A stretch of DNA of 17,683 nt from an uncultured Coriobacteriaceae bacterium (GCA_902766445.1 CACXDP010000262.1:1-17683), one strand, 5' to 3'; shown: positions 10,875 through 14,458, counted from the stretch's first letter. A program made the numbers and translations. Notes: a model not told the origin generated them from the letters alone.

Positions 10875-11100
10875 CATTGTAGCAGTACGCACGCCATCCG
10901 TTTTGCATATGACGTTAACGGAGAACGTGCAGTATCTGTGCCACTCGACCTTGTCTGAAAGGCACGTCGTGGGGCGAATAGAGCGCTCCTAGCCTCCCGA
11001 TACCACTACCCACCTGAGAAGCGTCCTCCTTGACCGCCTTCGATATGGTTCAGCTGCAGCTGGCAGCCCTCCATTCCCCGCTGGCCTCATCTGATAGTGA

Positions 11101-11801: not shown

Positions 11802-13478
11802 CTACCTGCGCGTGCCGAAGATGCCGCGTAGAATCTGCCTGCTCGCCTCGCGCCCAATGGTACCCACCACGCTGGTGACCACGGTGTTCGTCACGCGGTC
11901 GCGGGCGCGCTTGGCCTCTGCCTCCTTGCGCTCGGCTTCCTTCTCGGCCTTGAGGCGCAGGCGATCCGCCTCCTTCTCGGCTTTCAAGCGCAGACGCTCC
12001 TCTTCCTTCTCGGCTTTCAGGCGCAGCCTCTCGGCCTCTCTGGCCTCGGCAGCGGCCCTTGCAGCGGCCTCCCTATCGGCCTTTGCGGCGGCAGCAGCTT
12101 CCTCCTTGGCCTTTTGCGCCTCGAACGCAGCCTTCTCCTTCTCGAACGCCGCGCGCTCGGCAGCAAGGCGGGCAGCTTCGCTAGCCTCGGCACGCTCTTG
12201 TTCGATGAGCTCGTAGGCGCTCTCGCGGTCATAGGCCTCCTCGTACTTGTTCATGAGCTCGTACTCGTTGGCGATGACGGTGCTTACGATGCCCGCGTCT
12301 GCAGCAGCCATGCGGCACCCAGGGAAGAGCACCTTTGCGCGTTCCACGATGGACGGCTTTCCACTCGCATCGAGGAAGCTCACGAGCGCCTCACCCGTCG
12401 CGACGTCCTGCAGGGCCTGCACGGTGTCGAAGGCAGGATTGGTACGGAAGCTTGCCGCAGCAGCTTTGACTGCGCGCTGCTCGGCCGGAGTGTAGGCGCG
12501 AAGCCCGTGCTGCACGCGGTTGGAGAGCTGGGCCAGCACCTCACCGGGCACATCGGCAGGCGACTGCGTGATGAAGTACACGCCCACGCCCTTGGAGCGA
12601 ATGAGCTTGACGACCTGCACGACCTTGTCGGTGAGCGACTTGGGCATGCCGTTGAAGAGCAGGTGAGCCTCGTCAAAGAAGAACACGAACTTCGGCTTAT
12701 CAGGGTCTCCCACCTCGGGCAAACGCTCAAAGAGCGTCGAGAGCATCCAAAGCAGGAACATCGAGTACACGAGCGGGGTGTTGATGAGACGCGACGCGTT
12801 GAGGATGTTCACATAGCCGCGACCGTTTGCATCGCAGTCAAACCAATCCATGATGTCGAGGTTCGGCTCGCCAAAGAAGATATCACCACCCTGATCCTCC
12901 ACCGCGATGAGCGCGCGCTGAATGGCGCCCACCGACTGGCTGGAGACACGGCCATAGGTAATCTCGTACTCCTTGGAGTGGTCAGCCACGTAGGTGAGCA
13001 TGGCGCGCAGGTCCTTGAGGTCGATCAGCAGCATCTGCAGGTCGTCCGCCACGCGAAAGACGATGTTGAGCACGCCCTTCTGCACCTCGGTGAGGCCCAG
13101 AAGTCGACCCAGCAGCTCAGGCCCCATGTCGGAGATCGTCACGCGCACCGGTATGCCCGCGTCGCCGAGCATGTCCCATATGCGACACGGCGTGCCTTGG
13201 AAGGCGAACTCACGCTCGTCGATGCCAAAGGCCTCCATACGCGTACGCAGCGCGTCCGTGAACTCGCCCGCCTGCGCCATGCCCGTGACGTCGCCCTTGA
13301 CGTCAGCCATAAAGACGGGCACGCCCGCGTCGGAGAAGCCCTCGGCCATGACCTTGAGCGTCACCGTCTTGCCCGTACCTGTGGCGCCTGCAATGAGGCC
13401 GTGTCTGTTTGCTTTGTTGAGCAGCAGGTAGCAGGGGTTGTCACCCTGCGCCATCCAGATGCGATCGTCCTTGAGCAT
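11802..13478 (-). CDS. HerA-like / DUF853-family P-loop ATPase (YjgR-like) with a charged coiled C-terminal repeat region
   Basis: The start is revised to the ATG at 13476-13478 (MLKDDRIWMAQGDNPCYLLLNKANRHGLIAGATGTGKTV...), which is preceded by GAAAGGA. A Walker A motif GATGTGKT is present. A Walker B-like FVFFFDEAHLLF is also present. The C-terminus ...ILRGIFGTRR is typical of DUF853 proteins. Confidence 0.8.
   Translation of the reverse strand: MLKDDRIWMAQGDNPCYLLLNKANRHGLIAGATGTGKTVTLKVMAEGFSDAGVPVFMADVKGDVTGMAQAGEFTDALRTRMEAFGIDEREFAFQGTPCRIWDMLGDAGIPVRVTISDMGPELLGRLLGLTEVQKGVLNIVFRVADDLQMLLIDLKDLRAMLTYVADHSKEYEITYGRVSSQSVGAIQRALIAVEDQGGDIFFGEPNLDIMDWFDCDANGRGYVNILNASRLINTPLVYSMFLLWMLSTLFERLPEVGDPDKPKFVFFFDEAHLLFNGMPKSLTDKVVQVVKLIRSKGVGVYFITQSPADVPGEVLAQLSNRVQHGLRAYTPAEQRAVKAAAASFRTNPAFDTVQALQDVATGEALVSFLDASGKPSIVERAKVLFPGCRMAAADAGIVSTVIANEYELMNKYEEAYDRESAYELIEQERAEASEAARLAAERAAFEKEKAAFEAQKAKEEAAAAAKADREAAARAAAEAREAERLRLKAEKEEERLRLKAEKEADRLRLKAEKEAERKEAEAKRARDRVTNTVVTSVVGTIGREASRQILRGIFGTRR
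11940..12038 (-). repeat. In-frame tandem repeat, 3 x 33 bp, encoding RLRLKAEKExx x3 inside the ATPase C-terminal region
   Basis: The units are at 11940-11972, 11973-12005 and 12006-12038 (cttctcggcYttSaRgcgcag...). A degenerate fourth copy sits immediately upstream at about 11907-11939. Confidence 0.8.
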
Positions 13479-13534
13479 GGGAGTCCTTTCGCCGTGGTTG
13501 CATGCAACGCTCATTGTAGCAATTGAGACATAGG

Positions 13535-13592
13535 GATTCGGGGGACAGTCCCCTGATTCCCCGACGGGAATCAGGGGACTGTCCCCCGAATC
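13535..13592. repeat. Near-perfect inverted repeat (27-nt arms, 4-nt spacer) overlapping the rsmI stop codon and the rsmI/ATPase intergenic region
   Basis: gattcgggggacagtcccctgattccc at 13535-13561 is the reverse complement of gggaatcaggggactgtcccccgaatc at 13566-13592. Each arm also contains its own GGGGGAC.GTCCCCC sub-palindrome. The last 7 codons and the TGA of rsmI lie within the right arm. Confidence 0.85.
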
Positions 13593-14458
13593 ACCAAGTC
13601 GTACACCTCGGAGCGCGACATCGAGAACTCCTGAGCCAAGCGTTTCGCAAGACGACTCTTTGACTCGCCCGAGGCCAGCCCTTCGGCAATCGCATCCTCA
13701 AGTGACCGCGATCCCGCTGTGGGATTGTGGTCACTTGACCACAATCCCACAGCGGGATCGCGGTCATCCTTGCGCGGGCCTTCGACCACAATTACGCACT
13801 CGCCGCGTAGCTCCGGCCTTTCCGCCACCCGACGTGCCAACTCCGGAGCCACGTCGCGCACGACCTCCTCATGCAGTTTGGTAAGCTCGCGCACAAGCGC
13901 CGCACGCCGCGCGGGCATGACCTCGGCCACTGAAGCCAGCGTCGCCGCCACTCGATGCGGTGACTCATAGAAAACGAGCGCCCCCGGCACGAACGCCAAC
14001 TCGCGTAGACGTCGCTCCCGAGCCCCTGACTTGCGCGGTAGGAACCCCTCAAAGAAGAAATGCTCCATAGGAAGTCCCGACGCGACAAGCGCGCAGGTCA
14101 CGGCACTCGGCCCCGGAATCACCTCCACGGGCAAACCCCGTTCGAGCGCCTCGTCCACCAGCTGTTGCCCCGGATCGGAGATTCCCGGCATGCCGGCATC
14201 GGAGACGAACGCCACGCGCTCGCCCAACTCCACACGCTCCATCACGCCCGCGATGCGCGATGCGATGACGTTCTGGTCGCAGCGTACGAGCGACACACGG
14301 ATGTCGAAGCGAGCGAGCAGTCTCGACGTGACGCGTGTGTCTTCGCAGAGCAGCACGTCTGCCCGCCGCAAGGTATCGAGCACACGAGGGGAAGCATCGT
14401 CGAGATTGCCAATGGGCGTGCCCACCATCGAGAGCATACCCGAACCTGCCGCACTCAC
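13571..14458 (-). CDS. rsmI: 16S rRNA (cytidine1402-2'-O)-methyltransferase RsmI (tetrapyrrole-methylase fold)
   Basis: The N-terminal GTPIGNLDDASPRVLDTLRRADVLLCEDTRVT matches the RsmI signature (PTPIGNL...EDTRHT in E. coli). The overall length and order of blocks are as in E. coli RsmI. The start overlaps the upstream gene stop by 4 bp. A palindrome-encoded insertion of about 21 aa is in the C-terminal linker. Confidence 0.8.
   Translation of the reverse strand: MSAAGSGMLSMVGTPIGNLDDASPRVLDTLRRADVLLCEDTRVTSRLLARFDIRVSLVRCDQNVIASRIAGVMERVELGERVAFVSDAGMPGISDPGQQLVDEALERGLPVEVIPGPSAVTCALVASGLPMEHFFFEGFLPRKSGARERRLRELAFVPGALVFYESPHRVAATLASVAEVMPARRAALVRELTKLHEEVVRDVAPELARRVAERPELRGECVIVVEGPRKDDRDPAVGLWSSDHNPTAGSRSLEDAIAEGLASGESKSRLAKRLAQEFSMSRSEVYDLVIRGTVP
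13704..13766. repeat. Perfect 63-bp palindrome (30-nt arms, 3-nt spacer) located inside the rsmI coding sequence and translated in frame
   Basis: gaccgcgatcccgctgtgggattgtggtca at 13704-13733 is the exact reverse complement of tgaccacaatcccacagcgggatcgcggtc at 13737-13766. The spacer is ctt at 13734-13736. The element encodes DDRDPAVGLWSSDHNPTAGSRS in RsmI. The ORF track shows mirror-image ORFs on both strands, as expected for a palindrome. Confidence 0.9.

Follow-up and report, generated by a model that had tools for sequence, protein, structure and literature searches.

The window analysed here, a 17,683-nucleotide stretch of DNA from an uncultured Coriobacteriaceae bacterium (GCA_902766445.1, CACXDP010000262.1), carries on its minus strand (13571–14458) a gene for RsmI, the 16S rRNA C1402 2′-O-methyltransferase, 295 amino acids in length. 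The identification rests on TIGR00096 (217 bits over residues 8–233, against a cut-off of 167.9), on the PDB RsmI structures 5hw4 and 9pzg (E ~1e-43) and on homologues. The catalytic TP_methylase part (residues 8–228; 13775–14437, minus strand) is 97% identical in nucleotide sequence to alleles with and without the insert described below, with a dN/dS of ~0.02–0.04. Downstream of the insert lies a C-terminal three-helix domain (residues 253–293; 13580–13702, minus strand; helices 253–262, 267–278 and 282–293). Two separate palindromic repeat families, which we call family 1 and family 2, touch this rsmI within 240 bp: a family-1 element separates the two domains, and a family-2 element overlaps the 3′ end of the gene. 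Elsewhere in the window, three 33-bp tandem repeats (11929–12038) fall within the C-terminal charged coiled region (...RLRLKAEKE...) of a herA/DUF87-like ATPase gene.

The family-1 element is a perfect inverted repeat. A repeat search of the window places its arms, each 31 nt and 100% complementary, at 13703–13733 and 13736–13766, with a 2-nt centre (CT), for a palindrome of 64 bp in all (13703–13766). The preliminary description, made from the sequence of the window, had recognized the perfect symmetry but gave a slightly smaller element (63 bp, 13704–13766, 30/3/30 rather than 31/2/31). It had also held that such a repeat is extremely unlikely to arise by chance, and the statistics agree: the window has two occurrences of the 31-nt arm, none of 200 dinucleotide-preserving shuffles contains it, and the element, folded as single-stranded DNA, forms a hairpin of −42.1 kcal/mol (z = −16.6). 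When a 104-nt segment is folded in the mRNA sense, the element yields a 30-bp uninterrupted perfect stem (MFE −77.1 kcal/mol, z = −10.2). A search of Rfam 15 returned only sub-threshold generic miRNA-precursor hairpins (at most 49.6 bits, against gathering scores of at least 80).

Each arm is also a 13/5/13 hairpin unit in its own right, TGACCRCRATCCC-N5-GGGATYGYGGTCA, and the rsmI element as a whole contains four TGACCRCRATCCC half-sites in alternating orientation. Unit A (13703–13733) reads TGACCGCGATCCC-GCTGT-GGGATTGTGGTCA, with two stem positions that are G·T on this strand; unit B (13736–13766) is its exact reverse complement, TGACCACAATCCC-ACAGC-GGGATCGCGGTCA. The element is thus a doublet of two inverted 31-nt hairpin units with a 2-nt spacer. 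On either strand, its frames 2 and 3 are free of stop codons and encode the peptides DRDPAVGLWSSDHNPTAGSRS and TAIPLWDCGQVTTIPQRDRG, while the remaining frame opens with TGA.

Within rsmI, the doublet lies in frame and corresponds to residues 232–252. The encoded peptide, DDRDPAVGLWSSDHNPTAGSRS, is exactly the one reported in the preliminary description. That account had about 21 residues added to the protein; 21 are indeed encoded by the element, but the net gain is 12 codons, as the linker has 24 codons in the window and 12 in the nearest insertion-free alleles (net +36 nt). Since the element has two open frames and the net change is a multiple of three, the gene would be read through, with a linker longer by 12 residues.

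An alignment of 32 Atopobiaceae-type homologues and an AlphaFold prediction both place the insert in the C-terminal linker of RsmI, where it had been assigned from the window. Linker length and sequence vary among the 32 homologues. In the prediction, which used the same 32-sequence alignment (mean pLDDT 79), residues 233–249 have pLDDT values below 50 and form a low-confidence loop between the last catalytic strand (221–226) and the confident three-helix domain (253–293), whose helices are aligned and conserved in the 32 homologues. We considered whether the long RsmI linkers of other Atopobiaceae are also palindrome insertions and rejected this idea, as the long linker at the P0010 locus (L035) contains no inverted repeat. 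In some homologues (P0085, P0089, P0071 and others), the N terminus is extended by up to ~50 residues in which MGERV...AENDGR motifs recur; these extensions may be start-codon miscalls or another variable appendage.

Comparison of insert-bearing haplotypes gives a dN of 0.002 and a dS of 0.13 for the catalytic part and, against the RUG440 haplotype described below, a dN of 0.013 and a dS of 0.13 for the C-terminal domain; dN/dS for linker plus insert is ~0.6. The C-terminal domain is still under purifying selection past the insert. As purifying selection on the frame beyond the element argues for its translation, ribosomes probably read rsmI straight through the doublet.

To define the distribution of the unit, we scanned the pattern GACCRCRATCCC-N3–7-GGGATYGYGGTC over 185,579 species-representative genomes (one per species). 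The scan returned 24 stretches, among them 11 sites (10 loci on 9 contigs) from a single genome, "uncultured actinobacterium RUG440" (ONMP01); every other genome had at most one site. Other copies of the arm, for which the preliminary description had proposed a search, thus exist in this one genome, where at least 11 dispersed elements share the hairpin unit. These comprise 7 inverted doublets and 4 single units, that is, at least 18 units on 9 contigs. The doublets are located, by RUG440 locus, at L006 2200–2265, L013 1724–1789, L015 4247–4310 (the rsmI copy), L021 3431–3496, L022 652–717, L026 6518–6581 and L027 5121–5186; the single units are at L004 7211–7241, L007 3784–3814, L014 5842–5872 and L021 4282–4312. 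A repeat family, its hairpin structure and its dispersal are established by these copies.

Matches in Streptosporangium, Trebonia, Oscillospiraceae and other genomes were rejected as family members, since each genome has one site and the loops differ. Two Streptosporangium matches have near-identical flanks, and the Oscillospiraceae match has a T-rich loop and a T-run that resemble an intrinsic terminator; both cases were set aside. The unit pattern had no matches in the JGI metagenome collection or the IMG/VR viral collection, indicating that phages do not carry the family and that it is absent from those collections.

The 31-nt consensus unit is TGACCACGATCCC-(ACAGC or GCTGT)-GGGATCGTGGTCA. 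All units open with TGAC(C) and close with (G)GTCA. In the doublets, units are separated by 2–4 nt, the two loops are mutually reverse complementary and the long hairpin is the predicted MFE structure. The outer arms are 100% complementary in 8/8 doublets. In the five doublets with one decayed unit (L006, L021, L022, L026 and L027), the inner arm accounts for all 15 mismatches and the outer arm for none (p ~3e-5), as though each doublet behaved as a unit maintained only at its termini; these appear to be its conserved and functionally relevant part. One doublet is particularly close to that in rsmI. It sits at the unlinked L013 locus, flanked by genes for a CLC channel and a P-type ATPase. Its stems have the same derived variants as those in rsmI (outer GCG, inner ACA), and only loop orientation and spacer set the two doublets apart. 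From their sequences, the L013 and rsmI doublets would look like sister copies of a mobile doublet.

Most copies sit at the 3′ ends of genes, and 10 of the 11 RUG440 elements lie outside known protein domains. For eight flanking ORFs (at L006, L007, L013, L014, L021, L022 and L026), the terminal TGA/TCA of an element supplies the stop codon. In six of these eight, a Pfam domain (DUF554, CLC channel, beta-lactamase, HAD, GT2 or, in one methyltransferase, Methyltransf_4, PF02390) runs to the C terminus. At L026 6518–6581, two convergent genes each stop in one end of the same doublet. Only the rsmI copy is bordered by protein domains at each end. Across the 22 flanks of the 11 elements, neither a target-site duplication nor an insertion motif was apparent. 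A 7-mer flank, GCAAGGA, is common to the rsmI and L026 copies.

The rsmI locus of RUG440 (L015) is 96.8–96.9% identical to the window over 5 kb, which makes the two conspecific. It carries the doublet at the identical position in rsmI, with one mismatch (in the mRNA sense, GGCCA in place of GGTCA). Each of the four proteins that make up the 90%-identity RsmI cluster has the insert, and ENA and Logan yielded it from 10 or more contigs of 9 different assemblies, built from several samples, with record names of the k141, k87, STEW18/STEW19 scaffold and Logan types. This recurrence disposes of an assembly artefact, one of the outcomes by which the preliminary description would have been refuted. 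An insertion site common to two haplotypes is established: a perfect-palindrome haplotype (the window, L001 and L032–L034) and a one-mismatch haplotype (L015 and L028–L031). The two differ at 1 of the 64 positions of the element, and the difference is non-synonymous (S to P). Drift at the synonymous rate of 0.13 would give ~8.3 differences (Poisson p = 0.002), and the coding divergence of 3.4% would give ~2. This similarity is a suggestive but weak hint of constraint on the nucleic acid, as it rests on full neutrality. The low divergence could mean that the hairpin is under selection or that one of its arms has served as the template for correcting the other.

Outside the cluster, the closest homologues are P0002 and P0003 (loci L002 and L003), with 97.5% nucleotide identity over the first 680 nt of rsmI. 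Their linker consists of 12 codons (VTDERTEVAVRT) and has no palindrome. The question of whether the insertion is strain-specific can thus be answered in part: the closest alleles outside the cluster are free of it, but it is not private to one strain, being common to two haplotypes. Relative to the window, dS for L002/L003 is 0.10 over the 228 upstream codons and 1.43 over the 35 downstream codons. This sharp jump indicates that a recombination breakpoint coincides with the linker (~13700–13776) and that L002 and L003 are not true empty sites. As the alleles compared include no true empty rsmI site, those of L002/L003 being recombinant or divergent downstream of the linker, the insertion event, and how a 64-nt element gave a net +36 nt, cannot be reconstructed. 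The intergenic DNA downstream of rsmI in L002/L003 is unrelated to that of the window.

The family-2 element, a palindromic doublet at 13527–13600, has 35-nt arms that are 91% complementary and an inverted arrangement of a unit unlike that of family 1, in which a TGA comes directly after the core GGGGACAGTCCCC. Reaching into the 3′ end of rsmI, the element provides the last six codons and the TGA stop (13571–13573; ...VIRGTVP*). The RUG440 haplotype has no family-2 element here, and its RsmI ends ...LLKR*. The difference is an indel polymorphism of conspecific haplotypes, in which 73 bp of the window (13522–13594, containing the family-2 palindrome) correspond to 2979 bp of L015 (1160–4138). 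The 2979-bp segment, between the herA-like gene and rsmI, encodes a Flg_new-repeat surface protein called as 867 amino acids. The family-2 unit also occurs in RUG440 at L026 (66–108 and 3445–3481), as one direct pair and one inverted pair.

Several other features of the neighborhood vary. The L034 contig ends inside the family-2 palindrome (10906–10921), and palindromes of this type can break short-read assemblies. Downstream of rsmI, other Atopobiaceae-type genomes carry unrelated short repeat arrays (L035 10920–11110; L002 ~1000–1160), one of which consists of direct and inverted copies of CTAACGAAATCGGACCTTGCGGCA; this intergenic spot seems to collect repeats. The perfect-palindrome haplotype (L032 1264–3853, L033 and L034) has a methyltransferase and RE_XamI restriction-modification gene pair ~6 kb upstream of rsmI; the RUG440-type haplotype (L028/L029) lacks the pair at that position.

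How might the family-1 units have spread? REP and REPIN systems have a cognate single-copy RAYT, a Y1 HUH transposase that is typically flanked by REPs. Using Pfam, we detected no Y1_Tnp (PF01797)/RAYT in 46 RUG440 ORFs (those flanking elements and 26 further ORFs, from ~70 kb of loci) and no Y1_Tnp among the 10 largest ORFs of the window, and the pre-computed Pfam annotations of the 20-kb rsmI loci L028–L034 contain none either. A regular-expression search for HUH motifs gave one candidate, which we judged implausible.

The rsmI palindrome is most probably one copy of a dispersed REP/REPIN-type hairpin repeat family that is read through in frame. The host of the family is an uncultured Atopobiaceae-like actinobacterium of a rumen lineage. 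The family-1 unit is a 31-nt hairpin, found singly or, more often, as an inverted doublet able to fold into one long hairpin. One such doublet would have inserted into rsmI at the variable, disordered linker that joins the catalytic and three-helix domains, where it is presumably, in essence, a tolerated passenger at the protein level. The spread of the family, now or in the past, may have depended on a transposase that recognizes single-strand hairpins, such as a RAYT or an IS200/IS605-type enzyme; both the conserved outer arms and the lack of visible target-site duplications are in line with such an enzyme. The 30-bp mRNA stem may lower rsmI expression; the preliminary description had likewise allowed for effects on translation, and for a cruciform in the DNA. 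The dispersed RUG440 copies, the insertion-free nearest alleles and the disordered linker all favor the proposal, made from the window, that a small MITE/REP-like palindrome has been tolerated in frame.

One alternative is that the element has been exapted, either because the mRNA stem tunes the level of RsmI, as a target of RNase III or an obstacle to ribosomes, or because the longer linker is useful. The perfect 30-bp stem formed by the 104-nt mRNA segment and the finding of one haplotype difference where ~8.3 are expected at the synonymous rate speak for such a role. However, this deficit assumes full neutrality and becomes one difference against ~2 at overall coding divergence, the single difference is non-synonymous and linker plus insert evolve with a dN/dS of ~0.6, the encoded peptide is predicted to be disordered, and the presence of other copies at unrelated gene ends implies that the sequence was not shaped for rsmI. 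We consider exaptation unlikely. There is also a bolder reading, in which the family would be the first REPIN-like system in Coriobacteriia, with a non-GTAG/CGTC hairpin, stop-donating TGA/TCA termini and a mobilizer other than a classical RAYT, and in which the rsmI mRNA hairpin has been co-opted to throttle a ribosome-modification enzyme. If this rather improbable scenario were true, the rsmI copy would be held under constraint at the level of nucleic acid (1/64 differences where ~8 are expected). It is also conceivable, but very unlikely, that the units are protein-binding sites, each doublet offering four TGACC-type half-sites to a dimeric or tetrameric regulator or a nucleoid protein, with the rsmI copy as an intragenic operator. 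The regular 13-N5-13 layout of half-sites, their repetition as inverted pairs and the strong conservation of the outer half-sites would suit this role, but the copies follow the stops of genes that have no function in common, separate convergent genes or interrupt a coding linker, none lies in a promoter region, with perhaps two exceptions, and the rsmI element is present or absent among conspecific alleles.

Template switching or hairpin-primed synthesis could have generated an inverted duplication of the native rsmI linker de novo, with no family involved, and the ends of the palindrome do align loosely with the linker codons of relatives (D-D/E-R on one side and R-S/T-L-E on the other). Since the 31-nt unit occurs at 10 other places on 9 RUG440 contigs, once as a doublet with identical stems, we regard this origin as highly improbable. 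A fold-back or hairpin chimera introduced by a de Bruijn assembler deserves almost no credence. Perfect palindromes can arise in this way at contig ends, and L034 does break inside the neighboring family-2 palindrome, but the one in rsmI is internal, lies between unique flanks, leaves the reading frame intact and is seen in 10 or more contigs of 9 assemblies, as two haplotypes one base apart.

If a dispersed hairpin repeat entered rsmI, the locus offers a clean, datable case of selfish hairpin DNA lengthening a housekeeping protein, in which a conspecific insert-free allele persists beside two insert-bearing haplotypes. It would also add a rumen Atopobiaceae lineage, and a TGAC terminus in place of GTAG or CGTC tags, to the range of REP/REPIN-type repeats. 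On the practical side, such palindromes may trip gene callers and assemblers, as illustrated by the related contig that breaks in the neighboring element.

Family 1 most resembles the REP sequences and REPINs, in which REP doublets form hairpins and are mobilized by RAYT transposases (PMC3116915, PMC3337134). As in those systems, a short, imperfectly palindromic unit occurs as singlets and as inverted doublets with a short spacer that fold into one long hairpin (PMC3116915, PMC3337134). The copies are dispersed, mostly extragenic, 3′ of genes or between convergent genes, and lack visible target-site duplications, and the family-1 singlets look like decayed doublets. By the features that define REPs and REPINs, there is a dispersed 31-nt 13/5/13 unit, a majority of inverted doublets (7/11) and an extragenic bias (10/11, with eight element ends abutting ORF 3′ ends). 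The differences are that we counted 11 elements in the sampled RUG440 loci, compared with hundreds in classical cases, that their host is not a proteobacterium but an Atopobiaceae-like actinobacterium, that the scanned ORFs include no RAYT and that family 1 has both head-to-head and tail-to-tail loop arrangements. Our literature search, which was incomplete in coverage, found no report tying REPs or RAYTs to Actinobacteria.

MITEs have IS-derived terminal inverted repeats and usually generate target-site duplications. Like ERIC, Correia/NEMIS, RUP and other such elements, family 1 is small, non-coding, palindromic mobile DNA, but its members are shorter (31 or 64–66 nt), no direct repeat flanks any of the 11 elements, and in the loci examined there is neither a transposase gene nor a visible parent IS, which sets family 1 apart from MITEs. 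Bacterial MITEs are sometimes intragenic and yield in-frame fusions (PMC10969869). The Rickettsia palindromic elements (RPEs; Ogata et al., 2000) insert in frame into housekeeping genes where the fold of the protein can accommodate them (reviewed in PMC10969869). The rsmI insert is similar in that an in-frame palindromic repeat adds a peptide to a housekeeping protein, a resemblance in behavior only. RPEs are ~100–150 bp, and in-frame insertion, in tens of genes, is their rule, whereas the doublet is 64 bp and 1 of 11 elements is intragenic; in both size and intragenic share, family 1 falls outside the RPEs.

Two large REP superfamilies are defined by GTAG or CGTC tetranucleotide tags (PMC3733652). 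Neither tetranucleotide is conserved in the units or flanks of the 11 elements, which places family 1 outside both superfamilies; its terminal tetranucleotide is TGAC and lies within the stem, and the donated stop is TGA rather than TAG. In other respects the parallel is close. Di Nocera et al. (2013) described REPs whose full length falls within the ORF of a known protein, with dimers or groups making up more than half of these cases, and REP termini that give stop codons to flanking ORFs (PMC3733652). Family 1 has counterparts of both, an intragenic dimer in rsmI and element-given stops in eight flanking ORFs. Because in-frame REP dimers and REP-donated stops were catalogued before (PMC3733652), as were in-frame palindromes in the form of the Rickettsia RPEs, the rsmI doublet leaves current understanding unchanged and adds to it a further example of a hairpin repeat that a housekeeping gene has come to encode.
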